This document shows, in pieces, positions 28,539 through 64,000 of a stretch of DNA of 64,000 nt (position 1 is the stretch's first letter; each line of letters opens with the position of its first letter). Under the pieces are notes generated by a model. That model was not told the origin of the DNA, ran no database searches, and saw only the letters and a list, made by a program, of their open reading frames with translations. This DNA comes from an uncultured Bacteroidota bacterium (GTDB taxonomy: Bacteria > Bacteroidota > Rhodothermia > Rhodothermales > DATKEJ01). Position numbers and translations under genes: made by a program. The stretch is taken from NCBI GenBank assembly GCA_963768715.1, contig CAVYJC010000002.1, forward strand, positions 272,529 to 336,528. Reading direction: 5' to 3'.

Positions 28539-28540
28539 TT

Positions 28541-34097: not shown

Positions 34098-34127
34098 GGG
34101 ACGGCTCGTCGAAAGGCGGGCCGTCCC
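34098..34127 (+). terminator. Conserved 3' hairpin (copy 3)
   Basis: gggacggctcgtcgaaaggcgggccgtccc followed by CATTTAG. Confidence 0.55.
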
Positions 34128-34131
34128 CATT

Positions 34132-34400
34132 TAGTCATTGGACACTGGACATTGGTCACTAGTGAGGTGTGGCAATCTACGCTGGATCCCTCTATCATGC
34201 TTCGGGACTCATGCACTGGGAGACCTCGGACATCGGACCCTACTAGTCATTGGACACTGGTCACTGGTCACTAGTGCGGTGTGGCGATCTACGCTGGATC
34301 CCCTCTATCATGCTTCGGGACTCACGCACTGGGAGACCTCGGACATCGGACCCTACTAGTCATTGGACACTGGTCACTGGGTGTCATTAGTCATTAGCGG
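34132..34400. repeat. Tandem repeat of a 112/113-bp unit (2.4 copies), itself starting with GTCATTG/GTCACTG heptamers and ending with GGACATC heptamers
   Basis: Units start at 34132, 34244 and 34357 (tagtcattggacactgg...ggtgtggc[a/g]atctacgctggatccc...gggagacctcggacatcggaccctac). Copies differ at a handful of positions. Confidence 0.9.
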
Positions 34401-34674: not shown

Positions 34675-34772
34675 GACAGCTATTGGGCATTGGGTACTAG
34701 TCGTTAGTCACTCTACGGCTGAGGCACAGGGAGCGGAAGTGCCTTTGGCAAACGCCCAGACTGCCTCAAGAC

Positions 34773-34807
34773 GGACATCGGACATCGGACCTCGGACATC
34801 GGACCCT
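34773..34807. repeat. Tandem heptamers GGACMTC x5
   Basis: ggacatc ggacatc ggacctc ggacatc ggaccct. Confidence 0.9.
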
Positions 34808-41166: not shown

Positions 41167-41223
41167 CTACGTCGGCATGCCGGACAACGCCGACGGCATC
41201 GGACCGGACATCGACTGGCGGCA

Positions 41224-41286
41224 CACCGAACACCAAACACCAAACATCGAACACCGAACGTCGAACACCGAACGTCGAACACCGAA
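41224..41286. repeat. Tandem heptamers CAYCRAA x9
   Basis: caccgaa caccaaa caccaaa catcgaa caccgaa cgtcgaa caccgaa cgtcgaa caccgaa. Confidence 0.9.
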
Positions 41287-41294
41287 CCATTCTG

Positions 41295-42595: not shown

Positions 42596-45334
42596 ATGCG
42601 AAATGTATTACATAAACTCTGGTATCTCGGCATTATGGCGTTTGTCGCCGTCGTGGCTATGGCGCCTCCGGCGCTCGCGCAATACGACGCAAGCGCTCTG
42701 ACCGCCGACAACCCAATGAACCTGTTGTCCAACGGGGGCTTCGAGGTCATGAAGCCGGCGTACTGGGATGCCGATGGTGACGGCGCCAGTTGGACGGACG
42801 CCATGTCGCGTACGCCCGAATGGAGCCTGGAGCTTTCGGGAGCAGGAGAAGCGTCGTGGACGATGGGAGAAGCGGTACGCAACTGGACACCGGCCTTCCC
42901 GGCTGACGGCGAGAAGAACCCTGAGATCGAAATCGGCGGGTGGGTCTACACCGACGGTGTGAACACCTCCCCCGGCGCCGATGATGAAAAATTCCAGCTC
43001 GTCTTCGAGTTCTTCGAGGATGCCACCCAGACGACGAACGTGTTGGGTGAGCCGATCGTGCTGGATCTTCCGCAGGATGCGGCATCGAGCGATGGCTGGG
43101 TTGAGGTCTCGAACGAAGCACTCGGCGCGATCACATTTCCCGGACCGCAGGCCGCGAAGAGCGCGCGCGTGACCTTCCGCAAAGGAGCGAATGCCACAGG
43201 TACGGCATATCTCGACGACCTGTATATCCGGACGGCCGAGGGATCCGACGGATGGTCGGGTGACTTCTTCAATGCGAACATGGACGCGGGAGACAACAAC
43301 TACTACTGGTGGAACAACTTCTCCGGCGGCGTGGCCGACTGGCCTGACACGCAGGATCACATTAATACGGTGAGCAACGGCGACGCGTACGAAGGTGATT
43401 ACAGCTTGCGGCTCGAAGCCAACACCGACAACCAGAACGAAACCGTCGGCATCCTTGAGCGCGTACCCGTCGACGGCCCGATCGTTGTCAGTTTTCGCGT
43501 GAAGTACGAGGGTAATGCCGAACCGGATTCCATTGGAGTCGGGCAGAATAACCTGGGCATTACAGTACTTTGGTACAGCAACATGGAGTCAGGTGCGGCC
43601 GGCTACAATCAGATTGGCGAGGTCAACGTGACGTTGAACAATACGGTGAACGATGACCCCGTCAACGAACAGGTTGTCCCCAAACTGGGACCTTCCGAGG
43701 ACGGGTGGACGCAGTATGCCTTCGTTCTATACCCCTTGGATGGGACCGTCGGGACCGAAATCCGACCCAGATACTGGAACGGGTTTACCGGAGTCTCCTA
43801 CTGGGATGACTTCTTCGTAGCGCCTCTGTCGGAAATAACATCCAGTCTTGCCGATGAGAATGAATTATCCAACGGCGGCTTCGAGGTCATGAAGCCGGCG
43901 TACTGGGAAGCTACCGGAAGCGGTGCGATGTGGTCAGACGCAATGTCACGAACCCCCGAGCGCAGCTTGGAGCTCACTGGCGGAGGTGGACTGACGGGCA
44001 CTGGTGAGGCGTCGTGGACGATGGGAGAAGCGGTACGCAACTGGACACCGGCCTTCCCGGCTGACGGCGAGAAGAACCCTGAGATCGAAATCGGCGGGTG
44101 GGTCTACACCGACGGTGTGAACACCTCCCCCGGCGCCGATGATGAAAAATTCCAGCTCGTCTTCGAGTTCTTCGAGGATGCCACCCAGACGACGAACGTG
44201 TTGGGTGAGCCGATCGTGCTGGATCTTCCACAGGATGCGGCATCGAGCGATGGCTGGGTTGAGGTCTCGAACGAAGCACTCGGCGCGATCACATTTCCAG
44301 GACCGCAGGCCGCGAAGAGCGCCCGCGTGACGTTCCGCAAAGGCGCGAATGCCACTGGTACAGCGTACCTCGACGACCTGTATATCCGCACCGCCGAGGG
44401 ATCCGACGGGTGGTCGGGTGACTTCTTCAATGCGAACATGGACGCGGGAGACAACAACTACTACTGGTGGAACAACTTCTCCGGCGGCGTGGCCGACTGG
44501 CCTGACACGCAGGATCACATTAATACGGTGAGCAGCGGCGACGCGTACGAAGGTGATTACAGCTTGCGGCTCGAAGCCAACACCGACAACCAGAACGAAA
44601 CCGTCGGCATCCTTGAGCGCGTACCCGCCATGTCGGGCGTTCCGCTGCTCGTCAGCTACTTCCTCAAGCACGAAGGGAATGCCATGGAAGACTCCATTGG
44701 CGTCGGACAGAACAACTTGGGAATGGTGTTCCTGTCGTACAGCAGCATGGAGTCAGGTGCGGCCGGCTACAATCAGATTGGCGAGGTCAACGTGACGTTG
44801 AACAGCACGGTGAACGATGACCCCGTTAACGAACAGTTTGTCCCTAAACTGGGTACCTCCGCGGCGGGGAAATCAGCCGGAGCCGACTGGACGCAGTACG
44901 GATTCGTCTACTATCCGCTTGATGGAGCCGCCGGAATCGAGGTTCGTCCCAGGTACCACCAGGCGTTCAGCGGGGTCAGCTATTGGGATAATATTTCTGT
45001 AATTCCGCTGGGTGGACTCCACGTGAACACGGCCGTCGAGGATGACCCCGTGGACGGTTCACTTCCGGAGACCTTCCGTCTCAATCAAAACTATCCAAAC
45101 CCGTTCAACCCGGCGACCACGATCTCCTTCGACCTTAAGCAGTCGCAGATCGTCTCGCTCGGCGTGTACAACGTGCTCGGACAGAAAGTGGCGAGCCTCC
45201 TCGACCGTCAGTTGATGACGGCCGGTACCCAGGCAGTAGAGTTCAATGCAGCCAGCTTGCCGAGCGGTCTGTACCTCTACGTGCTGGAGGTGAACGACCA
45301 AGCCGTCTCCAAGAAGATGGTATTGCTGAAGTAG
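42596..45334 (+). CDS. T9SS-secreted protein with an internally duplicated ~386-aa unit containing CBM4/9-like (NGGFE) jelly-roll modules
   Basis: ORF 42476..45334. Start set at the ATG at 42596, preceded by AAGGAGG (42584..42590). Signal peptide MRNVLHKLWYLGIMAFVAVVAMAPPALAQ. SNGGFEVMKPAYW... occurs twice. CTD QNYPNPFNPATTISFDLKQSQIVSLGVYNVLGQKV...GLYLYVLEVNDQAVSKKMVLLK. Confidence 0.85.
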   Translation: MRNVLHKLWYLGIMAFVAVVAMAPPALAQYDASALTADNPMNLLSNGGFEVMKPAYWDADGDGASWTDAMSRTPEWSLELSGAGEASWTMGEAVRNWTPAFPADGEKNPEIEIGGWVYTDGVNTSPGADDEKFQLVFEFFEDATQTTNVLGEPIVLDLPQDAASSDGWVEVSNEALGAITFPGPQAAKSARVTFRKGANATGTAYLDDLYIRTAEGSDGWSGDFFNANMDAGDNNYYWWNNFSGGVADWPDTQDHINTVSNGDAYEGDYSLRLEANTDNQNETVGILERVPVDGPIVVSFRVKYEGNAEPDSIGVGQNNLGITVLWYSNMESGAAGYNQIGEVNVTLNNTVNDDPVNEQVVPKLGPSEDGWTQYAFVLYPLDGTVGTEIRPRYWNGFTGVSYWDDFFVAPLSEITSSLADENELSNGGFEVMKPAYWEATGSGAMWSDAMSRTPERSLELTGGGGLTGTGEASWTMGEAVRNWTPAFPADGEKNPEIEIGGWVYTDGVNTSPGADDEKFQLVFEFFEDATQTTNVLGEPIVLDLPQDAASSDGWVEVSNEALGAITFPGPQAAKSARVTFRKGANATGTAYLDDLYIRTAEGSDGWSGDFFNANMDAGDNNYYWWNNFSGGVADWPDTQDHINTVSSGDAYEGDYSLRLEANTDNQNETVGILERVPAMSGVPLLVSYFLKHEGNAMEDSIGVGQNNLGMVFLSYSSMESGAAGYNQIGEVNVTLNSTVNDDPVNEQFVPKLGTSAAGKSAGADWTQYGFVYYPLDGAAGIEVRPRYHQAFSGVSYWDNISVIPLGGLHVNTAVEDDPVDGSLPETFRLNQNYPNPFNPATTISFDLKQSQIVSLGVYNVLGQKVASLLDRQLMTAGTQAVEFNAASLPSGLYLYVLEVNDQAVSKKMVLLK
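42719..45016. repeat. Intragenic tandem duplication (1140 + 1158 bp) with a 619-bp near-identical core (42851..43469 vs 44009..44627)
   Basis: Out-of-frame ORFs recur at a +1158 offset (42946..43299 vs 44104..44457). By manual alignment the core differs at 14 positions, 13 of them synonymous. The flanks of the unit are much more divergent. Confidence 0.95.
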
Positions 45335-45422
45335 CCTGATCATCATGGGGCGAGGTCGCTTCAGCCGTCTCGGCTGGGGCGACCTTCCTCCGTGGTGGCA
45401 TACCAAACTGAAGGATTCGGTT

Positions 45423-48079
45423 GTGAGGTTTTTCGTCCGTTCTCTGGCCGGTCTGGTCGCGTGCATGGCCCTGGGCGCCGGCATTGCGTCAGGTCAAACG
45501 GGCAAGATTGCCGGTCGCGTCATTGAAGAGGCAACCGGAGATCCCCTCCCCGGCGTAAACGTGATAATCCCGGGCACGCTGCAAGGCAGTACGACCGACG
45601 TCGACGGCTACTATTTCATCCTCAACGTAAAACCGGGTACGTATCCGGTCCGCGCTTCTTTCATCGGCTATTCGGCCGTGACGATCGACGGCGTTAGAGT
45701 GATGATCGACAAGACGGCGACGGCGGATTTCCGTTTGAGTGAGGAAACAGTCGAAGGGCAGGAGGTTGTCGTCGTCGCCCAGCGGCCGTTTGGTAGAAAA
45801 GGACCGAACTTCCACCGCGACATCCGTGTCTGCCGAGCGCTTGCAGGCTCTTCCAGTCCTCACGTTCAACGACGTGATCAATCTGCAGGCCGGCGTTGTG
45901 GAAGGACACTTCCGAGGCGGCCGAACGGGCGAAGTCTCGTATCTGGTCGACGGCGTCCCCATCAACGACGTCTATGATCAGACCTACTCCTACCAGGTGG
46001 AAAACAACGCGATACAGGAGATACAGGTCATTACGGGCACGTTCAATGCGGAATACGGGCAGGCCCAGTCCGGGATCGTGAACATCGTCACGAAGGATGG
46101 GGGCCGACTCGTATCGCGGCACGTTCAGTGCGTACGGCGGCGACTACGCCAGCACAAATACCGATCTTTTCACGCAGATCGACGATGTATCGCCGAAAGG
46201 GACTTATGAGCTCCAGGGATCAGTGGGAGGTCCGGTACTAAACGATCGTCTGACGTTCTTCGCCTCCGGCAGATACTGGCACGACGACGGCTATTTGTAC
46301 GGCCGGCGCGTCGTCAAGCCGGTTACGGCCGGACCCGGCGAGGGCCAGGTGGTGACGGTCGATGGCAGGCAGGTGTTCGTCCCGGCATTGGGAGACAGCT
46401 CGTACGCCTCGATGAACTGGAGAGATCAGTGGACAGGGAGCCTCAAGTTTTCCGCGCGACCACACGCCGGCACGCGCCTGACGGTGTCGTTCCTGACTCA
46501 GGAGGACAAAGGGCAGGACTACGACCACTACTTCCGTTACAACCCAGACGGCATTCCGACGACGTACGGTACTTCCCGATCGATCACAACGACGTTGAGC
46601 CACTTCCTCAGTGGACGCAGTTTCGTCGAGATCAAGGGGGCGTACTTCACCAATGAGGTCGACACGCATCTGTACGAAGATCCGCTCGACCCGCGCTGGC
46701 CGGCAGACGATGCCATTCGAACACTCGGTGGAAACTTCGCGTTCGTCCGCGGCGGTGCGCGCATGGAGCACTTCGCGCGAACGACCAAGACTCGCGTTGT
46801 GAGCATGAACTTCACGAGCCAGGTCACGCGACAGCATCAGATCAAGACAGGCTTTGAACTCAAAGGTCACAGCCTGGACGTCGACCAGTTCGACGTCCTA
46901 AATAACTCCTCGACGAATTTCCAGCCCGCCATCCCCGAGGCGGGAACACCCGCCCACGTACGGGTCTCGGCGGATCCGATCGAACTGGGCGCCTTCGCGC
47001 AGGCCAAGATGGAGTTCGACTTCATGATCATGAACCTCGGCGTTCGGCTCGACTACTTCGACGCGAAGGGAGACGTACTCCAGGACTTCGGTCGACCGCA
47101 GACGTCCGAACGCGTGCCTTCCAGCGCGAAATGGCAGCTCTCTCCGCGCTTCGGCCTCGCCTACCCGCTGTCGGAGCAGGGCGTCGTCCACATCTCGTAC
47201 GGGCATTTCTTCCAGATGCCTCCGTTCGAGTATCTCTACACCAACTCGGATTACATTTACGACCCTGAAGAGGGCGTGGGCCGGGCGTTCGGCTTCGCCG
47301 ATCTTGAACCGCAGGAAACCGTCGCTTACGAAATCGGACTGCAGCAGGCTTTCACCGAGACGTTTGGCGCCGACTTCACGGCCTACTTCAAAGACATTCG
47401 AAATCTTCTCGGAACGCGTCTTGAGGTCATTGAGCCGGGCTTCAACGAGCCGTTCCCACTCGAGAAGTACGGCCGATACGTGAATCGTGATTATGGGCAG
47501 GTTCGAGGATTCACGGTCTCGTTCGAGAAACGAATGTCCCAAGGGTTTGCTCTCGACATAGATTACACCTTCCAGATCGCCGAAGGGAATGCCAGCGATC
47601 CTCGATCGGTGTTGCTTGACGAAGAACAAGGGATCGAATCGGAAAAGCAGCTCGTCCCGCTCGATTGGGATCGTCGTCATCAACTGATTACGAGCTTCAC
47701 GGTCGGAGAGCCCGGCAACTGGCTGGCCACAATAAACGGACGGCTCGGCTCAGGCCTGCCCTACACGCCCTCCCTGGCAGACGAACGGATCGGACTGGAG
47801 AATTCCGCCAGAAGAAAGGGAGACGTATCCTTCGATTTGTTCGCAACGAAGGAAGTCAAACTGGGAGGCCTGCCGATTTCGGTCTTTACGCGCGTCTTCA
47901 ACCTCCTCGATACGCGGAATGAGATCGACATCTACTCCGATACCGGACGCGCCTTCCCGAATCTGAGATTTCAGCCCGGCGAACCGCAGGGATTGAACAC
48001 CAAAGACGAATACCTGAGAAGGCCCGATTTCTACTCGGCGCCTCGACAGGTCACAATCGGCCTTTCGCTTACGATATAA
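45423..48079 (+). CDS. TonB-dependent receptor with carboxypeptidase-regulatory-like domain (triad copy B), interrupted by two homopolymer frameshifts
   Basis: The reading runs through ORFs 45345..45977, 45739..46209 and 46097..48079. Likely GTG start at 45423 (VRFFVRSLAGLVACMALGAGIASGQ) with AAGGA 8 nt upstream. Frame changes at T-run 45789-45791 and G-run 46099-46103. Collinear with 10544..13267 (e.g. NDVINLQAGVVEGHFRGGRTGEVSYLVDGVPINDVYD). Ends ...VTIGLSLTI. Confidence 0.8.
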
Positions 48080-48084
48080 GTTCG

Positions 48085-51000
48085 ATGAGGAGCATCCTTC
48101 TGTCATTCTTACTTGCGCTTGCAACGACCGGGATCGCCGCTGCCCAGCGGATCCCGGATCCGAAGCAGGGCAACCCACGCCTCACGCAGTGGGGCGTGCT
48201 GGACGGCAACCGGGTCAGGACGCTCTTCGCCAACCACGGAGAAATCGCCCGGTGGCCCGATCAACCGTCCGGCGAATGGCCGAAAGGAAGTGGACACTCC
48301 TACGTCGACGGCGTTGCGTTCATCGTTTCCGTTAAGACGAAAGACGGCCTTGGAAACACAATAAAGCCACAAGCTACTAATTATAGAGAGTTTATAGATC
48401 GCGATCCGACGACCTCCGAGGTATGGGGCTGGGCGCCTGTGCCCGGATATTCCAATCCCCGCCAGGAGTCACCGGCACGCAGTGACGATCCGAGTACCTG
48501 GCCGAGCGAATGGCCGGATCGACCCATCGACTGGGCGGGCCAGTGGAACGGCTTCTTCGGCCGGGGCGTGGAGAACGCGGACGTCGAAACCTACTTCGTG
48601 TTCGACGACAGCCCCGACAGGGAGTGGACCGGCCCGAACCACAAGTTCTTTCCCTGCGCAGGAGATACGTCGCGGGGCGGGATTGGGATCGAAGTCGCCG
48701 CGCGCGGCTTTCAATGGAGCCACCCGCTCGCACAGGATGTGATCTTCTGGCTTTACGAAATCACGAACGAATGCGACGTCGACTACGACAACGTCTTCTT
48801 CTCGCAGTACATCGACTGGGGCGTCGGCGGAACCGACGACTCGGGTGACGACGAAGGCGCGTACAACACGAAGCTCGACCTCGCATTCGCCTGGGACTTC
48901 GACGGTGACGGGACGCCTGCCCGCTGGAGCCCGGTCGGGACGGCCGGATATGCCTTCCTCGAATCGCCCGGCAATTCAACGGATGGTGTAGACAACGACC
49001 AGGACGGCATAACCGATGAACGCCGCGACAGCGGGCCCGGACAGCTCATCGAGGGGAAGGATGCTATCCTTGCCTACGCACAGGCCAACTACAACCTGGA
49101 CGACTTCAACACCTTCTTCCTCGGAATCGAACAGCGACCGGCGTATCTCGCCGGACGATGGTGGACCGGCGACGAGGAAATGGACTGGGTGGGATACTCG
49201 GACGTGAACGGAAACGGCGTCTGGGACGTTGACGAGCCAGCTCAATGACGATGTGGGGGAAGACGGCCTCTCCCCGACTTCTCCCAATTATCCTGGTCGG
49301 GACGTCGGCGAGGGCGACGGTCAGCCGACGTCGGGTGAGCCCAATTTCGACAAACTCGACAAAGACGAGTCCGATCAAATCGGCCTGACCGGGTTTGCTG
49401 TCTTCAATGTCCACGATTACGAATTGCTCGACGACGCCCAGAACTATGACATCTTCTCGCGGGCGCTTCCGCCCTTCGAGGACATCTTGCTGGAAGGCGG
49501 CCGCAACCTGGGCATGTTCTTTTCGTCGGGGCCGTTTCCGTTGAAGGCGGGGCAGACCGAACGTTTCTCGATGGCTCTTTTGTTTGCCAACAAGGACTTC
49601 ACGGATCCGACCAACATCGCCAACTCGGCGCTGGCTCGAAAGAAGGAGACGGTACAGCAGATCTACAACGCGGACTATCGTTTCGCCCGGCCTCCGAACA
49701 AGCCCACGCTGACGGTCATCCCCGGCGACAACCAGGTGACCCTCACCTGGGACGACGTCGCAGAAAGATCGTTCGACCCCTTCCTCAGAGAGTTCGATTT
49801 CGAAGGGTACATGATCTTCCGATCGACCGAGCCGAATTTCGAGGAAAACCTCAGCATTACAGACGCTTTCGGAAATCTGATCTTCCAGAAGCCCATTGCA
49901 CAGTATGACCTGGTAAACGGACTCCGCGGCCCGCATCCGGTAGGCGTAAACGGGGTCCAATTCAATCTCGGAACCGACAGTGGGCTGAAACACACGTTCA
50001 TCGACCGCGACGTCCGGAACGGACAGACCTACTACTATGCCGTCGTGGCCTATGACCGCGGCTTGGTCGCGCGCAACGCAGACAGTACCGTTGTGACTAC
50101 GCCAGACGGCATGGTCCGCGGGCTGGCCCCGAGTCTCACGACGGCGATTATCAAGAATGATGTGGCGGGCAATGTCGTGGCCGACATCAACACGGGCTTT
50201 GCCGTTCCGAGGGCGCCGGCCGCCGGGTATGTCGGTCCCCAACTCGAGAACATGGTACAGTCGGTGCGCGGAACGGGAAACGTGGACGTAGAGATCGTCG
50301 CGCCGGGACTCGTGACCCAGTCGGCCGACTACGAGCTGGATTTTGAGAATCCCTCGCTCTGGCAGAACGAGGGAGACGTCACCTACGCACTGGTGAACAA
50401 GACCACCGGAACGACGGTCGACTCGGGTCCGATCACAAACGGAAACGCGGAGATCGCTCCGTTCGAGGGCTTTGTGGTGAATATCGAGTCCGCAACATCC
50501 GTGACCGTATCCGATGCCACTACGCGACTAACGGATGACGCCACCACGTTTCGAGCGGTCGTCAAACCTGCCTCCAAGATTCCTCTCGTGCAGTCACGAT
50601 TCGTTGCGATTCCGGATGACTTCGTGCTGCATTTCACCGACACGATCTCAGACACGTCTCTGGTTCTTGGATTCGGCATGCGAGCCATCCCGACACCGTT
50701 TTATATAGAGAATGCGGCGGGTGTACGCCAGCCGTTTATCGTGACGGAGGACGATGCGGACCTCCGCAACGGCCAGTACGACCACGGGGAGATGATCATC
50801 CTCGTCGCGGGTATCGAACCCGGTCTGCCCCCGGTACGGGACGCAGGCGCCTGGCGGGCGTCATGGGCGATCCAGCTCGTGCCGCCTGATCCTGTGCTCG
50901 AACCGGATTTACCTTTGATTCCGCCCGTGCCTGGATCCCGGCTCGAATTCGAAACGACCAAACCCTTTCAGACGGGCGATCGCGTCACATTCACGACGCA

Positions 51001-51352
51001 TCCGCCGTTCCTCGATGAGGCACAGGAAGCCAAGGACCTGGAGAATATCTTCGTCGTTCCCAATCCGTACGTAGCTACCAGCGAGTTCGAGCCGCCCAAC
51101 ACCTACAGAGCCGGTCGCGGGGAGCGCCGCATCTATTTCATGCATCTGCCGCGCCAGTGCACGATCCGGATCTACACGATTTCGGGTCAGCTCGTCCAGA
51201 CGCTGCAACACGAGTCGAGCATCGACGACGGACAATTGTCGTGGGATCTCGTGCAGCGCGACGGCATGACGATCTCATACGGGATCTATCTGTACCACGT
51301 CGACGCGCCGGGCGTGGGTGAATTTGTGGGACGATTCGGGGTGATTAAATGA
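48085..51352 (+). CDS. Giant secreted protein with Asp-rich motifs and T9SS-type CTD (triad copy B), one frameshift near 49232-49245
   Basis: ORFs 48085..49248 and 49229..51352. Signal peptide MRSILLSFLLALATTGIAAAQ. Collinear with 6900..10532 (GVDNDQDGITDE, GEGDGQPTSGEPNFDKLDKDESDQIGL, YRFARPPNKPTLTVIPGDNQVTLTW). CTD VVPNPY...GRGERRIYFMHLPRQCTIRIYTISGQLV...GIYLYHVDAPG...GRFGVIK. Confidence 0.8.
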
Positions 51353-51761
51353 GACGGTGGACTGAACATATCGCCCTCAGTTACAAATCCGACGTCACGG
51401 CGCTGGCCCCGTTGTGCCCTCCTGGAGCCGCAATAACCGCCCTGGGCCTGACCCCGATGGGCCCCGACGGAGCCGGGACAACCACCCCGGGCTTCAGCCT
51501 GGGGGGGCAGGTTGCGAATTCTAGTACCTCCGTCTTGGGGCTGCAGCCTCAAATATCTTTTGCGGCGCCGTTACCCCGTGATGAGGACCACCCCCGGCTG
51601 CGCACTCCTTCGTCGCGCTTAGACCGCCCCCTCCAGAGGGGGACAGCGGGGTACCAAACGGATGGCCGCCCTGCCCTTCGCGGGGATCGAGAGCTATCAA
51701 ATCGGCCTACCTCTCGGCCGCGGACACCCGCCTGTTTCAAACGGATGACCGCCTTGGCTCA
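51353..51761. other. 409-bp non-coding, hairpin-rich spacer between the giant gene and the PorV-like gene of triad B (the equivalent gap in triad A is 7 nt)
   Basis: GC-rich hairpins CCCCGGGC ttca GCCTGGGG (51485..51504) and CCCCCT ccag AGGGGG (51627..51642). Direct repeat CAAACGGATGRCCGCC at ~51655 and ~51735. No convincing ORF. Confidence 0.7.
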
Positions 51762-52766
51762 TTGATCCTGCTTCTGGCGACCTTGTTCTCCACCGTCGCC
51801 TCCGCCCAGGGCGTCTCAAAAGTCGGCACGACTTCGGCCGATTTCCTACAGATTGACGTCGGACCCCGGGCCGTTGCCATGGGCGGCGCCTTTGTGGCTG
51901 CGGCGAACGATGCGTCATCGCTCTATTGGAATCCGGCCGGCCTCGCCAACATGAAGGACAGTGAGCTCATCGCAGCGCACTCGGAGTGGCTCGGCGATCT
52001 CAACTTCGACTATCTCGGTGTCGCACTGAACATGGGCGTCGCCGGCGTCGCGGGCGTTTCTGTGACCATGCTGTCCATGCCCGACATGCTTGTGCGTACT
52101 GTCGATCGACAGGAGGGCACCGGGGAGACCTACGACGCGGCCGATATGGCACTCGGATTGTCTTACGGGAAAGCGGTGACCGATCGTTTCTCGATAGGCT
52201 TGACCGCGAAATACATCCGACAGCGAATCTGGCACTCCGCTGCAACGGGGATGGCGCTGGACATCGGGACTCAGTTTCGAACCGAATTCGCGGGTGGCCT
52301 GGTTATCGGAGCGACGATTTCCAACTTCGGCACCGACATGAAGCTCAATGGTCGAGATCTGCGTACGTTCGTCGATCCGGATCCGAGCCAGCTCGGCAAC
52401 AACAACCGTATTCCCGTCAATTACGAACTCGACACACACAAACTGCCGCTCAATTTCCAGTTCGGCGTTAGCACAAACCCGATCAATTCGCGAATGCACC
52501 GGGTCACGCTGAATGCCGACGCGATCCACCCCAATTCGAACAATGAAAGCCTGAATCTGGGCGCAGAGTACTGCTTCCAGGAACGAATTTTCTTTAGAGG
52601 GGGGTATCGGGGCCTCTTTCTGGATGGAACCGAGGGGGGCATTTCCGGAGGATTGGCTGTACACCAGGCACTCTTCGAGGGCGGCCTTGCCAAACTAGAC
52701 TACGCGTTCCGCAGCGGAGGACGTCTCGGAGACGTCCACGTGGTCGGGTTTGGCCTTACGTTCTAA
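51762..52766 (+). CDS. PorV/PorQ-family outer-membrane beta-barrel (triad copy B)
   Basis: 334 aa. GVSKVGTTSADFLQIDVGPRAVAMGGAFVAAANDASSLYWNPAGL. Ends ...VVGFGLTF. The track start is a TTG; an ATG at 51745 (MTALAH*) sits in another frame, so the N-terminus may carry another indel. Confidence 0.75.
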   Translation: MILLLATLFSTVASAQGVSKVGTTSADFLQIDVGPRAVAMGGAFVAAANDASSLYWNPAGLANMKDSELIAAHSEWLGDLNFDYLGVALNMGVAGVAGVSVTMLSMPDMLVRTVDRQEGTGETYDAADMALGLSYGKAVTDRFSIGLTAKYIRQRIWHSAATGMALDIGTQFRTEFAGGLVIGATISNFGTDMKLNGRDLRTFVDPDPSQLGNNNRIPVNYELDTHKLPLNFQFGVSTNPINSRMHRVTLNADAIHPNSNNESLNLGAEYCFQERIFFRGGYRGLFLDGTEGGISGGLAVHQALFEGGLAKLDYAFRSGGRLGDVHVVGFGLTF

Positions 52767-54963: not shown

Positions 54964-55794
54964 ATGTCTAGAAATCGGATGTCCCTTCCCCGCCTGCTCG
55001 CATACCTCGCCCTCGTGCTCGGCGCCGTGGTCTTCGCCTATCCGTTTATCTGGATGGCCCTCGCCACGCTGAAGCCTGAGGTCGAGCTCAGCAATTTGAA
55101 TGTCTTTCCGAGGCAGTGGTCCCTCGAAAGCTACGCTGTCGTCTTTCGGAATATCCCCATCGAACGTGCGTTCCTGAACAGCGCCGTCCTTGCCCTCTTC
55201 GTCACGACCTCGGCGCTCGTCTTCGGATCGATGGCCAGCTACTCGCTCTCCAAGCTGAAATGGAAGGGGCGAGACGCAGTCTTCACGCTGATACTGTTCA
55301 CGATGATGGTCCCGTTCCTCGTGCTCTTGATCCCCCTGTACACGCTGGTCGTCCGTTTCGGCTGGACCGACTCACTGGCCGGACTGGCCATCCCGTTCAT
55401 GATGAACGCGACGGTCGTGCTCATCCTTCGCCAGAGCTTCCTCAGCATACCCCAGGATCTTCTCGACGCGGCAAGAATCGACGGTTCGGGGGAGCTGAGA
55501 ATCCTGTTCACGATCGTTTGGCCGCTCTCCGTTCCGGCCCTCGTCACGGCGGGAATCATCGTGTTTCTCGGAAACTGGAACGAGGTGCTCTGGCCGCTCA
55601 TGGTGGTACGAGAGGAGCACTGGATGACCATGCCGCAAATGGTGACCCTGTTTTCCGTCGGCGGAGGAGCCGAGGGCAAGCTGGGGCCGCGACTCGCTGC
55701 CGCCCTGCTGCTGGCGCTGCCGGTGATCGTCGCCTACATGCTCTTCCAGAAACGGTTTATATCGAGCCTCGCATCAACGGGATTGAAGGGATGA
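54964..55794 (+). CDS. Carbohydrate ABC transporter permease (MalG-like)
   Basis: 276 aa with EAA loop LDAARIDGSGELRILFTIVWPLSVPAL. Confidence 0.85.
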   Translation: MSRNRMSLPRLLAYLALVLGAVVFAYPFIWMALATLKPEVELSNLNVFPRQWSLESYAVVFRNIPIERAFLNSAVLALFVTTSALVFGSMASYSLSKLKWKGRDAVFTLILFTMMVPFLVLLIPLYTLVVRFGWTDSLAGLAIPFMMNATVVLILRQSFLSIPQDLLDAARIDGSGELRILFTIVWPLSVPALVTAGIIVFLGNWNEVLWPLMVVREEHWMTMPQMVTLFSVGGGAEGKLGPRLAAALLLALPVIVAYMLFQKRFISSLASTGLKG

Positions 55795-55827
55795 AGATGG
55801 CAGATGGAAGATGGAAGATGGAAGACT
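55793..55827. repeat. Tandem heptamers GMAGATG x5 starting within the permease stop codon
   Basis: gaagatg gcagatg gaagatg gaagatg gaagact. Confidence 0.9.
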
Positions 55828-56515
55828 TGTCCCGAGCGAGCGAGCAGACATCGCTGATATGCTCTCCCTGTGGATCGAGCGACGAGGGATGGCAGATGGC
55901 GAGGTAGCCACCCGGGCTTTAGCCCGGCGAGGCAGGCAGCGAATCCGAGGGAGTTCCTCGTGGGGCTGAAGACCAAGAAATATGTTTGGCCGCCGATGGG
56001 AGCCGTCTCGGGAGCCCGTGAAGGAAACAGTGAGACGCAAACAACTTACGGTCCCCCCTGAGGGGGCAGGCTGGATCCCGAACACAGTTCGGAGGAAGCC
56101 GGGGGGTGGATCCGCTGCAAAATCTCACGACTATCCGACATCCACCCCTCCCCGCTCCGCGGGCTCCCCAAGGGAACCGGACACGTCTACTATTCCCTCC
56201 GAGCCGGGCTTCAGCCCAGCGAGGCGGGCGGCCCCACAGAGTCTGGCCCAACATCCGCACTTCGCACGGCCGTAAACAGCCGTGCTACAAGGAGATCCCG
56301 CCCTGCTGCCGCAGGGCTGCGTGGTAGCGCGATTCTCAAGCCCGCCCTCCTTATTCGTCCACATCTGAGCCCGCTTCAGCGGGCGTGTCACTGCTCTAGC
56401 ACGGGGATTTATTCCCGTGCGGGCTGATCGAGGCGCTGTCTCGCCGACGAAGTCCGCCGCAAAACGGGTATTTCGGACTTTTGGGACAGCCCCTGGCTGC
56501 CCAATTCGACGCAGA
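55828..56515. other. ~690-bp non-coding spacer packed with short GC-rich hairpins (REP-like)
   Basis: CCGGGC ttta GCCCGG (55912..55927), CCCCC tga GGGGG (56054..56066), CCGGGC ttca GCCCAG (56204..56219), GCCCTGC tgcc GCAGGGC (56300..56317), GCCCGC ttca GCGGGC (56369..56384), GCACGGG...CCCGTGC (56399..56420). ORFs here are Pro/Arg/Gly-rich and overlap each other. Confidence 0.7.
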
Positions 56516-57931: not shown

Positions 57932-58930
57932 ATGGATCTTTTTCAGAGGCATGACGAACCGGTATTGTGGCCACGAGACGACGTTGCATGGGCATCAGGG
58001 GCGGTATTTAATCCCGGCGCCTGGTACGAGGACGAAGTCGTCCACATGGCCTTCCGCGCCGTACCGAACGGCTACAACACCATCATGGTCGTCGAAGAAG
58101 GAGACGAGCAGCCGCGGCGAGGTTTCGTCGACTACATCTCGAGCATCGGATATGCGAGCAGTCGCGACGGAGTCCATTTCGACTGGAAACCGCGTCCACT
58201 GATCGGCCCCGATTCACCCGCCGACATATACGGTGCAGAGGATCCGCGGATCTCCAAAATCGGAGACGTCTTCCTCATCACGTACACCGCCCTGAGCCAA
58301 CCGGCATTCGGCGGCGACCGCGACGGAGTGCGCATCGGGCTGGCCAGTACCAAGGACTTCGAAACGGTGACACGTCACGGGGTGATCGGACCCGACAGGA
58401 GAGATAAAGACGCGGTCATATTTCCGTCTAAATTCGACGGCCGTATCGCGATGCTCCACCGAATCTTTCCCGATATCCAGGTAGCCTGGTTTGCAGGCAT
58501 CGACGAGCTGTGTCATCCCCCGAACGACTTCTGGCCGAAATACATCGAGCGCCTCGCCGATGCCATCGTGATGAGTCCCGAACAGGACTGGGAGGAAAAG
58601 AAGATCGGGATGGGTCCGACGCCGATCGAGACGCCCGAGGGATGGCTGCTGATCTACCACGGGGTTGATCGCGAACACGTCTATCGTGTGGGCCTGGCGC
58701 TGCTCGACCTCGAGGATCCCACACGAATCATTGCGCGAACGAAGTCCCCAGTGTTTGAACCCGAAACCGACTACGAACTCATCGGCGACGTCAATAACGT
58801 CGTCTTTCCTGAGGGCGCGGTCGTGATCGACGACGTGCTGCACATGTACTACGGGGCGGCAGACAGAGTGATCGGCCTCGCAAAGGCGAATATGTCGGAT
58901 GTACTCGCAGAAGTACTGGGGAAACGATGA
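57932..58930 (+). CDS. Glycoside hydrolase family 130 (beta-mannoside phosphorylase/hydrolase family) protein
   Basis: 332 aa. GH130-like blocks FNPGAWYEDEVVHMAFRAV, GAEDPRISKIGDVFLITYTA, DKDAVIFPSKFDGRIAMLHR, GWLLIYHGVD...YRVGLALLDLEDP, LHMYYGAADRVIGLA. Confidence 0.75.
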   Translation: MDLFQRHDEPVLWPRDDVAWASGAVFNPGAWYEDEVVHMAFRAVPNGYNTIMVVEEGDEQPRRGFVDYISSIGYASSRDGVHFDWKPRPLIGPDSPADIYGAEDPRISKIGDVFLITYTALSQPAFGGDRDGVRIGLASTKDFETVTRHGVIGPDRRDKDAVIFPSKFDGRIAMLHRIFPDIQVAWFAGIDELCHPPNDFWPKYIERLADAIVMSPEQDWEEKKIGMGPTPIETPEGWLLIYHGVDREHVYRVGLALLDLEDPTRIIARTKSPVFEPETDYELIGDVNNVVFPEGAVVIDDVLHMYYGAADRVIGLAKANMSDVLAEVLGKR

Positions 58931-60021
58931 GTCTACGGTCCATAACCGACGGTCCGGCTGTCAAGGTCGAGCGTCTCAACGATGGAAACCCCGTTCTCGA
59001 GGCGATGCCCGAGAATGATTGGGAAAGCCGGGTCGTTCTCAACCCTGCAGCAGTACTCCTACCTGCCGACCCAAGGTTGGACGGTCTCATGGACGCCTGG
59101 TCACTCGACGGCGACCAGAAGCAGATACTGGACTGGGCCGACGGGGCCTGTGTCATGATATATCGTGCTCAAGGCCCGATTCCCGAAGACTCAGACGTCG
59201 CCCCATCGAGTCTGGGATTGGCCGTTCTCACGCCCGATCTGGAACTGGTGAAGAGGTGGCCGACCCCGATCGTGTCCCCGGATGAGAACTTTCACAACCT
59301 CGGCGTCGAGGATCCGCGCATCACGTGGGCCGACGGGGCCTGGCACATGTACTACGCAGGTTATTCGGGTGATCCTCGCGCCGGAGTACCGAATCGGCGC
59401 ATCCAGATCTGCCATGCAGAGACTGCCGATTTTATCAACTGGTCGCTCAGCGGTCCGATCACAGGACGGCTGAACAGCGTTCCCAACAAGAACGCGGCTC
59501 TCCTTCCCTCTCCCGTGCGGGACCGGTGGATCCTGCTCCATCGGCCCATGGAAGGCCCGGATGCAATGGCCATTCATCTGGCCGCGAGTGAGTCACCGGC
59601 CGGCCCGTGGGAACCGGCGGGCGTTCTATTCAAATCGTACGTATATCAGGAGTTCGAGCGTTCATGGGTCGGAGCCGGCGGACCACCGATCCATCTGGAT
59701 GGGAATCGTTTCCTCATGATTTACCATCAGGGACATTTCGATAAGAATGGCCGGCGCGAATACGATCTGGCCGCCGCGCTGCTGGATCTCGATGAGGACG
59801 ATCCCGTTATGAGCCGAATCGAGCCCTTGATGCGGCCGACCGGCGATCTTGAGCGGTCGGGTGATCCCGAAGTAGGCGTCGACAACGTGCTTTTCACGTG
59901 CGCCAACTACGTATTCGGAGATGACCTGATCATTCCCTACGCCGGCGCCGACAGCCGGATCTTCGGTGCGTCGGTCCCTGTCGACGATCTACTTTCGGAA
60001 CTCGATCGTCACGCGGGCTGA
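58927..60021 (+). CDS. Second GH130-family protein
   Basis: 364 aa with a 4-bp overlap with the previous gene. LNPAAVLL, GVEDPRITWADGAWHMYYAGYS, NKNAALLPSPVRDRWILLHRP, FLMIYHQG...YDLAAALLDLDEDDP, LIIPYAGADSRIFGA. Confidence 0.7.
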   Translation: MSLRSITDGPAVKVERLNDGNPVLEAMPENDWESRVVLNPAAVLLPADPRLDGLMDAWSLDGDQKQILDWADGACVMIYRAQGPIPEDSDVAPSSLGLAVLTPDLELVKRWPTPIVSPDENFHNLGVEDPRITWADGAWHMYYAGYSGDPRAGVPNRRIQICHAETADFINWSLSGPITGRLNSVPNKNAALLPSPVRDRWILLHRPMEGPDAMAIHLAASESPAGPWEPAGVLFKSYVYQEFERSWVGAGGPPIHLDGNRFLMIYHQGHFDKNGRREYDLAAALLDLDEDDPVMSRIEPLMRPTGDLERSGDPEVGVDNVLFTCANYVFGDDLIIPYAGADSRIFGASVPVDDLLSELDRHAG

Positions 60022-62490
60022 CCCGCTGCCAAGTGACGTACGAACTGTAGTCCGCTGGATACCGTCCCCGAGATCACTGCTCGACTTGTCTCGAATGACA
60101 ACGCCGGCCCCCGACGCTTTGACACGCCGGATTTGGGTGGGACTGATGACCTGAACGGTCGCCGTACCGTCCGAAGCTCCACGCAGATCGATATCGAGTC
60201 TCCGCCGCTTGGCATCGTAGGAGACGCCTTCGACGATGGCGTCCACTCGCTCGAGATAGGGCATATCCGGCCGTCCCCGAACCAGGTTGATGTCGGATGC
60301 TGGTCCCACGATCACGGCCGAGTACTGACGTTCGCCATCCGCCGATATTTCCTTGAAATACGGCCCGCTTCCGCTCCATTGTACGTGAGCCGAACGTCCC
60401 GCAACCGTTACGTCGTACGACGCATCCTCGAATCCGTGCGGAAGGTTCGCGTCGAAACGGATGTTCCATTCGTTCTCCCTCACGCCGCCAAGCTTGTAGA
60501 GAACCGACAAATACCATCCCCCCGCCCAGAGAAACGTGGTTTTGTCGAGTTCGCCGTACGCCGGCGAGTCCTTGTCGGTGCGGCGGTACTCGTACAATGC
60601 CGGCTGTCCACCCGGACTGTTCGCAATCCCATCCAGCGTATAGAACTTGCGGATGGCGGCAAGCGCACTGTCGGGTTCGTTGGATGCGAGGAGCGCCATG
60701 GCATACCAGGCATTGCCATGAGGCCACACGCCTCCGTTGATGTAACGACCGGGGAGTCCGGCCTCCAGCCCGATGAATCGGTAGCGCTCGATCAGTTCGT
60801 TGAAATCAGTCGGGACGACGGTCCGCAAACCGATTTCCGGATCCAAGAGCTTCGTTCGGGCCGTTTCCAACATGACCTGTTTTTTCTCGTCATCGATTTG
60901 ATCGAACACGGCCGCGAGCAGCGAGCCCATGTACAGGTGGTGATCGACCTCGCCGTTGTCGAGCTCGCTCAGCAGGAAGCCGGCCTTGTCGTCCCATAGC
61001 CGCGTCACCATATTCTCCTGCAGCTGGTCTGCAAGCGCCATGTACTCAGACAGGCGTGGCTCCTGCCTGTGGAGAACGGCCGTCAGGAAGCCGAACGTGC
61101 GGATCGCGCGAATGGTCAAGATGGTCAGGTAGGCCTTGGGTCCGTACACGTCGCCGATGTCCCACCAGTCCGGCTCCGAACCCTGCATGATCCCGTCCTT
61201 GTAGTTCTCGAGCATCAACTCGAGGCTCTTGGAGACCATTGGGTAGAGGCGGGCGACGAGCGCCGTATCGGCACTGTGCCGGAGGTAGGACCCCGTCAGC
61301 AGGATGAACCACAGGTGGTTCCAGTTGTCGCTTCCGGCCATCTCGCTGACGTACTTCCCGTCCCGCCAGTAGCGGGCGTGGGTGAGCACGTGGTCGCCTG
61401 TGTCGAAATGAAGGATATAGCGCAGATCATCCCGGACGGTCTTGGGATCAAACTGAACCACGCCCCGATCGGTCAGCAGCAGGTCGTGCGTGAAGAAGAA
61501 GTTGTATTGGGCGGGGCACGGCATCGGCACGATATGCCCTTCGAGCGGGTGCCGGTTGGCCTGCTGGATGGCCTTCGACCAGCGAGCCGTTTCGACCAAC
61601 GCGGAGTCATCGACAGAGAACGTCGAGGCGTCGACGAAGTCGGCCACGCGCTGTTCGAACGCGTTGACATCGTCGCGCCAGCTGCGTGCGAGCGCGCTGG
61701 ACGATATCTGTAACTTGCTGTCTCCGACTCGAGCCGATGATCTGGATGACCTGGAGTGTATCTCCCGGATCCAATTGTTTCGAATACACAAACTCGGCAG
61801 ACGGATCCTTGACCAGCCCCGCCATGTCCCCGGTCGCTTCCGGCATCACTCCGAAGTTTGCGACGAACACCGTCGCGGAATCGGTGTCCGCCGCATCGAA
61901 ATCCGCCCGGTAGGCTGAACCATCGTCTGAATAGCGCACGCTTGCGGAGTCGCGCCACGTGTAAGCATGTGACGTCCGCAGCGTCGTTTCGAGACCGGTC
62001 GACAACATCACGTCGAGCGGATGATCGGAAACGTTGGTCACATCGACTTGGAGGATCATCACGGGAAGCGTCTCACCGAAGCGGTAGCTGACCTTCACCT
62101 CGTGCGTGGGAGCCACTCCGGTATATTCTACATTCGCCGGCGTCCATTCGTACGGGAGCGAGGCCCGACTCAGGTCTTCATGTCTTCCGTCGACGGTCAG
62201 GTAGAGATACAACGGCATGGACTGATCGCGCTCCCAGTAGTCGGTGCTGAGATCGATGCTGTTGGCAACAGGATAGTAGAAGCTGATCCGGGACGGCGCC
62301 GGACGGCTGTGGTGGAACTCGAGACCGACGAAAGGTCCGCCCACCTGGAGCTGGCCCTGGAGGCCGTCGTAGGTCTTCGTGAGATCCGCGAGCGGCGAGG
62401 AAGGATTTTGGGCGTGGACGGCGTCGACGGTACAGGACAGAACAGACAGCAGACAGCAGACAGCAGACAGTAGGAATCGAGAGCAGACAT
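59989..62490 (-). CDS. (alpha/alpha)6-barrel glycosidase-like protein (amylo-alpha-1,6-glucosidase/GDE_C-like catalytic domain), with a frameshift at ~61725-61735 and its ATG out of frame across a heptamer repeat
   Basis: ORFs 59989..61791 (INGGVWPHGNAWYAMALL, FLWAGGWYLSVLYKLGG) and 61607..62344 (beta-sandwich N-domain). The upstream frame reads ...LLSAVCCLLSVLSCTVDAVHAQNPSS (signal-peptide-like) but has no start. The ATG at 62490 is in another frame (MSALDSYCLLSAVCCLFCPVP...). Confidence 0.65.
62443..62470. repeat. Four perfect tandem heptamers CAGACAG (CTGTCTG on the coding strand) inside the signal-peptide coding region of the gene above
   Basis: cagacag x4 read directly from the sequence, flanked by degenerate copies (acaggacagaa). 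Confidence 0.95.
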
Positions 62491-62729
62491 CAGACGTCAG
62501 AGGGCAGATGTTGAGTTGGGAGGGATGACTGTGAACGGAGGCACTCCGTTGAAGTTGAAGGGGGTTGGTTCCGGTGGGAATTTACGTCGGAGAGAGTCAG
62601 GATCGGCGTATTCATTTTGCGGGGTATCTTGCAGTCGGACAAGTCAGTCGCCCGGACGTCGACAGGGATGCATCCCGCAGCGGGCATCTTCGATCGCCGG
62701 CCAACAGGTGGAAACCCTCCCGGTCGTCG

Positions 62730-63983
62730 CTATCGATCTAAGATGAGGGTGACGGGCGTCGTGACCTGACGATTTCCGTCGAAGACCCGCAGCAGATAGA
62801 GGCCTGATCCGATTGCGGAACGCGGGAGCTCCAAGCGCACGGCACCACTGACATCCATCCACTCGGACTGGCTCATCACGGACCGCCCGCCGACGTCGAA
62901 GAGTTCGACGTGTTTCCAGCCGGGAGCCGGCCAATGATATTCGAGGACGAGGCGACCGGCGGCGGGATTGGGAAACACGCTTAGCGAACCGGCCGTCTCC
63001 GGCAAAGCGGGCTCGCGGCGCGTGACGGTGCTTGGCTGGTACCTGGCAACGTAGACATCCTCTGGATCCTCCGGACCTTGAGCCCATCCGACGATCACAT
63101 AATTCCCATCGCTATCGAGCTGAATCGCCTCGCCTGCACTGTTCGGCACGTCCGAAACGACTTCCCACAGGATCTCGCCGCCGGCATTCGCTTTAACAAG
63201 ATAGAGGCGCTCGTTGGAACCCCCGGCTGCCGTCTCGCCCGCAAGAACGTATCCACCGTCACCGTCAATCGTCACGGCGCTGCCCTCGTCCCGACCTGGT
63301 CCGCCGGCATACAATTCCCAGAGCAGCTCGCCCGTCTCGGAAATCTTGGCCGCGTAGAGATCACCGCCGCCCGCCTGGGTGTGTCCGACGCCGGTCACGA
63401 CATAGTTTCCTTCCGGATCCTCGACGATGTCGTCAAGATGCTCGATGTACCCGCCGCCAAAGGTGAGGGACCACTCGCGTGCTCCCTGGTCGTCGACCTT
63501 GAGAAGATGTCCACTCCGGTCTCCAAGCGGCGTCGACTCAAATCCTGCGAGAACGAGTCCTCCGTTGATAGGCGCGACTGCCAGTGTGCCGATCCAGAAG
63601 GCCAGCTCATCCTCGTATGTCGCGCTGCGCACGCTGTCGCCGGCTGCCGATAGATACAGGAGCCCCGGAATGGATGTCGGAGGAGATCCTGCAGCGGCGC
63701 CGCTGTTCGTTCCGAAAACGATCTCCCCCGAGGAAGGGAGGACGATCCCGGGCGTGAGGTAGTAGACGCCGGGAATGGACTTGATCCATAGCAGTGCACC
63801 GGCCGAGTCGATCCTTGCAATCTGTCCCTCCTCTTCGCCCGAGACGATGTAACCAAAGAGCAGGTAGTCGCCATCACCTACGGGGACGATGTCGTGGGCG
63901 CTCGATTTGGGATCTCCGACGTAGCTTCGTCCAAGCTCTTCTCCCGCTCGATCCAGTTCGAGAAGCAGGATCCGGGACTCCAT
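62730..63983 (-). CDS. T9SS-secreted beta-propeller-repeat protein (SBBP-like repeats); the N-terminus possibly lies beyond the window
   Basis: Repeats of the type DGDYLLFGYI, EGNYVVTGVG, DGGYVLAGET, DGNYVIVGWA. CTD LSVFPNPAAGRLVLEYHW...GLYLLRVFDGNRQVTTPVTLILDR. No signal peptide follows the listed M, and the frame stays open to the window edge. Confidence 0.7.
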   Translation of the reverse strand: MESRILLLELDRAGEELGRSYVGDPKSSAHDIVPVGDGDYLLFGYIVSGEEEGQIARIDSAGALLWIKSIPGVYYLTPGIVLPSSGEIVFGTNSGAAAGSPPTSIPGLLYLSAAGDSVRSATYEDELAFWIGTLAVAPINGGLVLAGFESTPLGDRSGHLLKVDDQGAREWSLTFGGGYIEHLDDIVEDPEGNYVVTGVGHTQAGGGDLYAAKISETGELLWELYAGGPGRDEGSAVTIDGDGGYVLAGETAAGGSNERLYLVKANAGGEILWEVVSDVPNSAGEAIQLDSDGNYVIVGWAQGPEDPEDVYVARYQPSTVTRREPALPETAGSLSVFPNPAAGRLVLEYHWPAPGWKHVELFDVGGRSVMSQSEWMDVSGAVRLELPRSAIGSGLYLLRVFDGNRQVTTPVTLILDR

Positions 63984-64000
63984 CGTGCCCCAATCTGTGG

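Follow-up and report, generated by a model that had tools for sequence, protein, structure and literature searches.

Results

An out-of-frame start codon beside a heptanucleotide tract

In the window, which denotes the whole 64,000-nt stretch of DNA analysed, a glycosidase gene on the minus strand carries a perfect array of CTGTCTG heptamers within its signal-peptide coding region. This tract is a genuine simple sequence repeat, unstable on an evolutionary scale, and the state in which the only ATG lies out of frame with the enzyme is somewhat better explained as a consensus error in an error-ridden assembly than as biology. We infer that the 5' defect itself is erroneous and that no regulated switching depends on the tract. 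The coordinates of the features discussed are collected in Table 1.

Table 1. Features of the glycosidase gene and of the heptanucleotide tract at its 5' end (window coordinates).
Feature	Position	Strand	Basis
Perfect heptanucleotide array (CTGTCTG)x4	62443..62470	-	Sequence, Tandem Repeats Finder, frame rebuild
Five degenerate units of the heptamer family, TCTGCCC TCTGACG TCTGATG TCTGCTC TCGATTC	62474..62508	-	Sequence and L083 comparison
Two trailing degenerate units, TTCTGTC CTGTACC	62429..62442	-	Sequence, Tandem Repeats Finder
Only ATG; out of frame with the enzyme N-terminal part; opens a 97-aa ORF (62197-62490)	62488..62490	-	ORF and frame analysis
Enzyme-frame ACG, at the position of the L083 ATG in the optimal alignment	62495..62497	-	Alignment
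GTC CAC GCC / CAA (V-H-A/Q), likely signal-peptidase I site	62408..62419	-	Sequence; cleavage site inferred
Glycosidase N-terminal part, class 1, signal peptide plus about 260 aa	61683..62497	-	Frame analysis
Glycosidase C-terminal part, GDE_C / MGH1-like domain, class 0	59989..61681	-	Frame and profile analysis
Extra G, second frame break, CGCACGCA[G]CTGGCG	61682	-	Alignments to L083 and L001/L002

Read on the minus strand, the ATG at 62490-62488 is followed by TCTGCTCTCGATTCCTA, the perfect (CTGTCTG)x4 tract (62470-62443), TTCTGTC CTGTACC, GTCGACGCC, GTCCACGCC and CAAAAT. The tract comprises four perfect units (28 nt), or approximately eight when the degenerate units are counted, and those at 62508-62474 span the start region, so that the tract continues upstream across the ATG. 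Tandem Repeats Finder delimits a period-7 array at 62443-62495/62501, with 7.7-8.6 copies and a match of 74-75%. A perfect 28-nt tract of period 7 is not expected in 64 kb and is therefore no chance event. In the enzyme frame the four units encode LSAVCCLLS, which forms part of the h-region of the signal peptide, while all three frames of CTGTCTG are devoid of stops and specify hydrophobic or small residues (L/S/A/V/C; L-S-A-V-C-C-L). Because of these two properties, CTGTCTG can expand harmlessly in a signal-peptide h-region.

The gene is distributed over three frame segments in the window, namely the ATG at 62490 (class 0), the N-terminal part (class 1) and the C-terminal part, whose 600 aa share class 0 with the ATG. 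The enzyme frame (...LLSAVCCLLSVLSCTVDAVHAQNPSS...) is open from 62581 through the position of the ATG of the close relative L083 and, from the upstream stop down to an internal GTG at 62344, contains no ATG, GTG or TTG. When the gene was rebuilt with one to eight units, the ATG at 62490 came into frame with 2, 5 or 8 units and remained out of frame with 1, 3, 4, 6 or 7; in the same rebuild, one base added after ATGTCTGCTCT yields MSALRFLLSAVCC.... A preliminary description of this locus had claimed a four-unit tract behind an out-of-frame ATG, an enzyme frame lacking an upstream start, and restoration of the frame by two or five units. The sequence and the rebuild agree with all of this, and eight units have the same effect. 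Three points were absent from that description: the break at 61682, the frame shared by the ATG and the C-terminal part, and the alignment of the L083 start with an in-frame ACG.

The glycosidase gene and its genomic context

The gene product is an (alpha/alpha)6 glycosidase of ~830 aa of the GDE_C / MGH1-like type. The catalytic domain matched the profiles PF06202 (1.6e-08) and PF22422 (7.2e-07), both passing their cut-offs, and 920 homologues of ~830 aa were retrieved; full-length ones number in the hundreds in Rhodothermales and in other FCB-group MAGs. Both the profiles and the full-length orthologues place the product among the GDE_C / MGH1-like (alpha/alpha)6 glycoside hydrolases, and PDB matches were remote only, to GH94-type phosphorylases. 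The glycosidase is the final gene of a polysaccharide-utilisation-type cluster that also includes a LacI regulator, a T9SS protein, a TonB-dependent receptor, a ~1150-aa protein, a PorV-like protein, an ABC sugar importer, a 470-aa protein and two GH130 genes. A search of Rfam returned no match, and a promoter/terminator scan detected neither element.

The source annotation presents the glycosidase as two genes of 245 aa and 552 aa, the latter (P0002) being the C-terminal part. Neither L083 nor the 85% orthologues L001/L002 have the extra G at 61682, the site of which is neither a repeat nor a homopolymer. Because this extra G breaks the frame again, a change in unit number alone cannot give the full-length enzyme.

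Comparison with the closest relative

Cluster look-up identified NCBI contig JBAUND010001002.1 (L083), which encodes an intact 830-aa glycosidase (P0121) starting MPAVCCQFLFLLLFIAGSFDPVHA/QNPSS. L083 is 98.0% identical to the window over 58227-64000 (5.8 kb) and, beyond the repeat region, the extra G at 61682 is the sole indel between them. The regions flanking the tract are nearly identical, with 0 mismatches in 62510-64000 and 1 in 62000-62400, whereas the 80-nt start region (62425-62505) presents 14 mismatches together with 15 extra nt in the window. The L083 start region reads A TCTGCTG TCTGATG CCTGCTG TCTGCTG, then TCAATTCCT CTTCCTGCTGCTTTTCATCGCCGGTAGCTTTGACCCC GTCCAC, with TCAATTC opposite the TCGATTC of the window; it thus contains heptamers of the same family around the start codon but no perfect tract at this position. 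Identity resumes at the V-H-A/Q coding sequence, which is the same in both.

The optimal alignment, obtained under several scoring schemes, is colinear as far as ATTCCT and sets the L083 ATG on the in-frame ACG of the window, with a CTG of L083 opposite the window ATG. The additional 15 nt of the window, a multiple of 3 but not of 7, are then in frame. Changing the ACG at 62497-62495 to ATG would yield MSDVCSRFLLSAVCCLLSVLSCTVDAVHAQNP.... Judged against this nearest intact allele in the optimal alignment, the repeat leaves the frame unbroken, and the window lacks a start codon. An alternative but less parsimonious alignment pairs TCTGATG with TCTGATG, shifted by one unit, and gives the window an additional unit before the ATG and one unit less after it; the earlier statement that one more unit restores the frame therefore holds under this shifted alignment. 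Because the changes needed within 80 nt are unusually dense under either alignment, the start region is a true mutational hot spot. The window ATG may be orthologous to the start of the 85% orthologue (MSAL... and MTALRS..., respectively), but the nucleotide alignment to L001 is unreliable there and that to L083 is colinear and gap-free in this segment.

Scans of JGI metagenomes with the flanking sequences gave no match, a protein search with the N-terminal part returned the source's own gene call only, and the nearest relative in the GTDB genome scan was 69% identical, with none closer; the useful relatives came from cluster look-ups. The upstream gene was found on two contigs only, and all collections searched hold just two alleles of the start region, those of the window and of L083. 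The comparison of orthologous loci suggested in the preliminary description thus provides one allele, L083, and this differs by substitutions and 15 nt rather than by a simple gain or loss of whole units.

Heptanucleotide arrays in the window

The tract belongs to a larger population of similar repeats. The window contains 12 arrays of period 7, compared with 0-4 for each other period from 4 to 12, and their density, 1.88 per 10 kb, is ~7-fold that of 1.36 Mb of other, related loci (0.26 per 10 kb). All but one of the 12 are intergenic or lie upstream of starts; the exception is the array studied here, which begins upstream of the start codon and extends into the signal peptide. Over-representation and a predominantly intergenic location are both features of a genome-wide class of heptanucleotide simple sequence repeats. 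The array at 28541-28642 differs from that of the related contig L085 by exactly one unit, and the array at 55793 has the same unit count as in L084. Among bacterial simple sequence repeats of 5-11 nt, those with heptanucleotide units are the commonest class and are often found immediately before start codons, according to a report that cites Mrazek 2007 (PMC4679880). The TAACTGA repeats of Beggiatoaceae, Cyanobacteria and Bacteroidetes (PMC4679880) likewise form dominant period-7 arrays that are mostly intergenic and often precede starts. They consist of one conserved heptamer, in contrast to the window, where the units are diverse (GTCATTG, GTCCGGG, CGGACAT, ACACCGA, GAAGATG, CTGTCTG) and one array enters a coding region.

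Indel load of the assembly

The preliminary description had cautioned that the assembly contains many indels, and dozens of single-base indels were indeed found between 25.9 and 62 kb of the window relative to 98-99%-identical relatives with intact ORFs. The full set of relatives compared comprised L084 and L085, from the same MAG as L083 (NCBI; 98-99% identical), L086 (JGI; 98%), L087 (ENA; 94%) and L088/L089 (Logan; 85-91%), and split genes were traced by Pfam and NCBIfam scans, a codon-usage frame plot and paralogue alignments. The TonB-dependent receptor is split over three frames, with breaks of +1 sign near 45790 and 46098, and +1 breaks also affect the gene of the ~1150-aa protein (near 49235) and that of a solute-binding protein (near 53260). 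The 470-aa gene, intact in relatives, carries window-specific +1 indels at 57010 and 57107. Breaks outside 45-62.5 kb involve three further genes that are intact in relatives, namely a ScyE-family gene split over three frames (+1 indels at 29508 and 29766), a Gfo/Idh/MocA oxidoreductase gene (+1 indel at 40445) and the 843-aa T9SS gene, whose C-terminal region contains a string of indels of mixed signs (27825-28367). At 27825-28368, L085 (NCBI MAG) and L088 (Logan, another species), which originate from separate projects, agree against the window. Also outside this region, a 0.8-kb stretch (30603-31413) presents 28 insertions and 3 deletions relative to L085, scattered every ~30 nt, which look like unpolished long-read noise. 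Decay of a single polysaccharide-utilisation locus, considered because the breaks were first seen in 45-62.5 kb, was rejected as the main cause since breaks also occur elsewhere.

Insertions outnumber deletions overall (43 vs 17), and every coding frame break is +1 except the 5' one and the mixed-sign cluster at 27825-28367. The segment 55790-56500 contains 10 deletions and 3 insertions, several of them at G/C runs, and the stretches 19.8-25.9 kb, 53.8-55.8 kb and 62.5-64 kb are indel-free. No nonsense codons were noticed at the breaks, and the ~17 kb aligned to near-identical references contain no multi-base coding deletions. Because the indels are small and insertion-biased, are accompanied by no larger coding deletion and are not confined to one operon, the pattern does not resemble that of naturally decaying genes. 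It resembles consensus error in parts of a long-read metagenome contig where coverage is poor or strains are mixed. Window-specific indels thus break ORFs of which near-identical, independent assemblies have intact copies. The motif CAGCT, which makes up 0.85% of the window, is created by two insertions that were verified and by a third that is inferred; a methylation-motif cause of the insertions was not retained, as the motif was picked post hoc and the sample is too small.

The contig (346 kb and present in both NCBI and ENA, compared with 3-13 kb for the contigs of relatives) is probably a Nanopore-only metagenome assembly. Indels remain in Nanopore-only MAGs that received one round of Medaka (PMC12313526, PMC9262707), and the present contig resembles these MAGs in being long and in carrying clusters of single-base indels that split ORFs intact in close relatives. 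It differs from them in that many of the indels lie outside homopolymers.

Discussion

Origin of the out-of-frame state

The data are consistent with an ordinary repeat overlaid by consensus error. The heptamer tract would have arisen and expanded by replication slippage over the start codon and the h-region, which would tolerate it since no frame of CTGTCTG has a stop and all encode L/S/A/V/C. In the organism the gene would be intact, starting either at an ATG at 62497 that was called as ACG or at 62490, in which case a base downstream of that ATG has dropped out of the assembled sequence, and the candidate errors are a missing base, a miscounted unit or a T>C at 62496. A consensus error is supported by the second break in the same gene, ~800 nt downstream at a non-repeat site and absent in L083, by the unrelated genes that are broken in the window though intact in relatives, and by the L083 ATG that falls on an in-frame ACG, with 15 extra nt that are frame-neutral. 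Nevertheless, the neighbourhood is clean, with 0 differences to L083 in 62510-64000 and, in 56.5-62.4 kb, one isolated indel besides those at 57010 and 57107, and the local prior of a random error in the 71-nt stretch is for this reason just a few per cent. Verified coding errors are, moreover, mostly +1, whereas the 5' defect would have to stem from a missing base, from two extra ones or from a T>C. Neither a perfect four-unit tract nor 14 mismatches to L083 in 80 nt can be noise; real, repeat-driven change has taken place at the start region and could have made a real frameshift. Of the collapsed repeat proposed in the preliminary description, the assembly indels were borne out but the collapse itself was not; a miscall of 1 nt or of T>C (the ACG) would serve equally well.

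If the sequence is correct, the window may instead hold a natural null allele, in which tract slippage and substitutions, or the loss of an ATG at 62497, inactivated a gene, and perhaps a locus, that is decaying with no regulation involved. Divergence is far higher in the start region (14 mismatches and 15 nt) than in the flanks, where mismatches number 0-1 per 200 nt, a second frameshift lies within the same gene, the polysaccharide-utilisation locus to which it belongs contains several further broken genes, and the one-unit difference at an intergenic array shows that tracts slip in nature. However, the breaks reach beyond one functional unit, to the ScyE-family and Gfo/Idh/MocA genes, they are small indels with a strong insertion bias, with no nonsense noticed and no larger coding deletion in ~17 kb, and 28 single-base insertions in 30.6-31.4 kb cannot be natural, which makes a null allele unlikely. 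A contingency locus, in which slipped-strand mispairing toggles translation of the glycosidase (ON with 2, 5 or 8 units, OFF with 4) as in opa and neuO, is favoured by a unit length that is not a multiple of 3, by the position of the tract after the ATG and ahead of the mature enzyme, and by a tract that is stop-free and signal-peptide-compatible in all frames. In the rebuild the ON and OFF states track unit number exactly, the region is hypervariable between two close strains, the alternative alignment makes the two ATGs orthologous and leaves the window one unit fewer after the ATG, and another array shows a one-unit polymorphism. Against this, only 4 units are present, the ON state is still truncated at 61682, L083 is without a perfect tract at this position, two alleles only occur in all collections searched, the array at 55793 has an equal unit count in both strains, and an error-ridden assembly is the simpler explanation; such a locus is, overall, very improbable. 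Thus, the frame arithmetic of the ON/OFF switch put forward in the preliminary description is right, but the break at 61682, the four units and an L083 allele that shows no clean unit change leave the switch itself unsupported, and there is little likelihood that the tract is a working switch for glycosidase secretion or translation in this mannoside-type polysaccharide-utilisation locus of an uncultured environmental Rhodothermales bacterium. It is very improbable that a correct sequence is read from a non-ATG start in the enzyme frame, such as the CTG at 62500-62498, the ACG at 62497-62495 or the ATC at 62509-62507, in which case the repeat would simply encode signal-peptide residues and the ATG at 62490 would be irrelevant. 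In accordance with such a start, the enzyme frame is open from 62581, and the length by which the window exceeds L083, 15 nt, is divisible by 3, but starts of this kind are rare, no ribosome-binding signal or promoter was detected, and the break at 61682 persists, so at least one assembly error is needed anyway.

With consensus error as the preferred reading, the chief value of the locus is cautionary: frameshifts in this contig, even beside genuine repeats, are unreadable as biology without reads. A modest biological residue is a heptanucleotide-rich lineage in which one array has spread into the coding region of a signal peptide and diverges rapidly from strain to strain. Were the switch true, repeat-mediated phase variation would extend from host-associated pathogens to nutrient-acquisition genes of free-living Rhodothermales, and heptamer arrays beside start codons would constitute a wider switch repertoire in a free-living, non-pathogenic bacterium.

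Comparison with known repeat-mediated switches

As in opa- and neuO-type loci, a perfect non-triplet repeat separates the start codon from the functional part of the ORF, and here it is located upstream of VHA/Q. No unit number gives the full-length ORF, however, since 2, 5 or 8 units reach the N-terminal ~264 aa only; a full-length ON state would exist if the extra G at 61682 is an assembly error, as is likely. In Neisseria opa, according to the account in one preprint, CTCTT pentamers in the signal-peptide coding region number 6-12 or more, and switching was measured within cultures and linked to a surface antigen (bioRxiv 10.1101/2020.09.16.300947). The present tract resembles opa in its non-triplet unit, in its position inside a hydrophobic leader between the start and the mature protein, and in that unit number sets the frame. 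It differs in having 4 units, in belonging to a periplasmic or secreted glycosidase and in the presence of a second, unrelated frame break.

The neuO gene of E. coli K1 contains the heptanucleotide AAGACTC, with 3-53 repeats across K1 genomes and 20 as the commonest number; mixtures of ON and OFF states were measured, and the residues encoded by the repeat belong to the enzyme itself and not to a signal peptide (PMC13001214). Both neuO and the glycosidase gene carry a heptanucleotide in the 5' coding region, with full-length translation for one residue class of copy number modulo 3. In contrast to neuO, the glycosidase tract has 4 units and lies in the signal peptide. In the Gardnerella sialidase gene nanH3, a poly-C tract adjoins the signal-peptide coding region and its length heterogeneity was established by clone sequencing; the same work cautions that errors of sequencing and assembly in tracts of this kind look like frameshifts (bioRxiv 10.1101/2020.09.16.300947). 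The glycosidase described here is, like NanH3, a secreted glycosidase whose annotation loses the signal peptide at a slippage-prone tract, although that tract is a heptamer and not a homopolymer.

Consensus quality along the window

Comparison with relatives 98-99% identical to the window revealed a sharp change in consensus quality near 25.9 kb. The left part (1-25900) displays no indels and every ORF is intact, while the right part (25900-62000) carries clusters of single-base indels and at least nine genes are split. Within one such cluster, the 0.8 kb extending from 30603 to 31413, 28 insertions, 3 deletions and 59 mismatches separate the window from L085, a contig from a related metagenome-assembled genome, in whose counterpart the T9SS-tail ORF is intact. 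From this alignment, the stretch looks like raw long-read noise remaining in the consensus.

Three single-base insertions (two verified, one inferred), located at 57010, 61682 and about 49235, create or lie within the motif CAGCT, which covers only 0.85% of the window. These insertions may reflect a motif-linked, e.g. methylation-linked, basecalling error, a post hoc reading of a very small sample.

Positions of indel clusters, period-7 arrays and paralogous segments in the window
Feature	Position
Indel cluster	25972-28464
Indel cluster	29508/29766
Indel cluster	30603-31413
Indel cluster	40445
Indel cluster	near 45790
Indel cluster	near 46098
Indel cluster	near 49235
Indel cluster	near 53260
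Indel cluster	55795-56392
Indel cluster	57010/57107
Indel cluster	61682
Period-7 array	25382
Period-7 array	28388
Period-7 array	28579
Period-7 array	30571
Period-7 array	32134
Period-7 array	33981
Period-7 array	34248
Period-7 array	34770
Period-7 array	37978
Period-7 array	41221
Period-7 array	55793
Paralogous segment, ~450 nt	28200-28650
Paralogous segment, ~450 nt	31865-32345
Paralogous segment, ~450 nt	33720-34380

Heptamer arrays and associated repeats

Period-7 tandem arrays, built from several different units, are ~7-fold enriched in the window and are nearly all intergenic. Some are located 60-100 nt upstream of start codons, such as 34770-34805 before a TPM-domain gene, and others occupy divergent promoter regions (e.g. 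41221-41287). The intergenic array at 28541-28642 (GTCATTG/GTCACTA family; L085 3439) differs by exactly one 7-nt unit from the 99%-identical L085, a TAGTGAC unit being missing from the window at 28602. Judged from the aligned sequences, this difference would be either direct evidence of unit-number change in the lineage or a unit miscount by the assembler.

T9SS-tail genes display three paralogous segments of ~450 nt at their 3' ends, each extending from the C-terminal end of its gene into the spacer beyond, with heptamer arrays inside. They match L085 3454-3930 at 75-99%, and a 113-nt direct repeat (2.2 copies) extends from 34132 to 34380. A GC-rich intergenic region of 0.7 kb (55790-56500) adjoins the GAAGATG heptamer array on its downstream side; it contains inverted C6/G6 runs resembling a hairpin (in L084, a second contig of the related genome, CCCCCCTTGAGGGGGG), has no Rfam match and displays 13 indels relative to L084.

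Paralogous outer-membrane triads

Two paralogous triads, at 5837-13384 (minus strand) and 45330-52763 (plus strand), each comprise a TonB-dependent receptor, a protein of ~1150-1230 residues and a PorV-like protein, with 34-46% amino-acid identity between the two. The ~1150-1230-residue protein has no Pfam match, and its C-terminus is weakly PorU-like. By its predicted products, the triad is a conserved, uncharacterised outer-membrane module.
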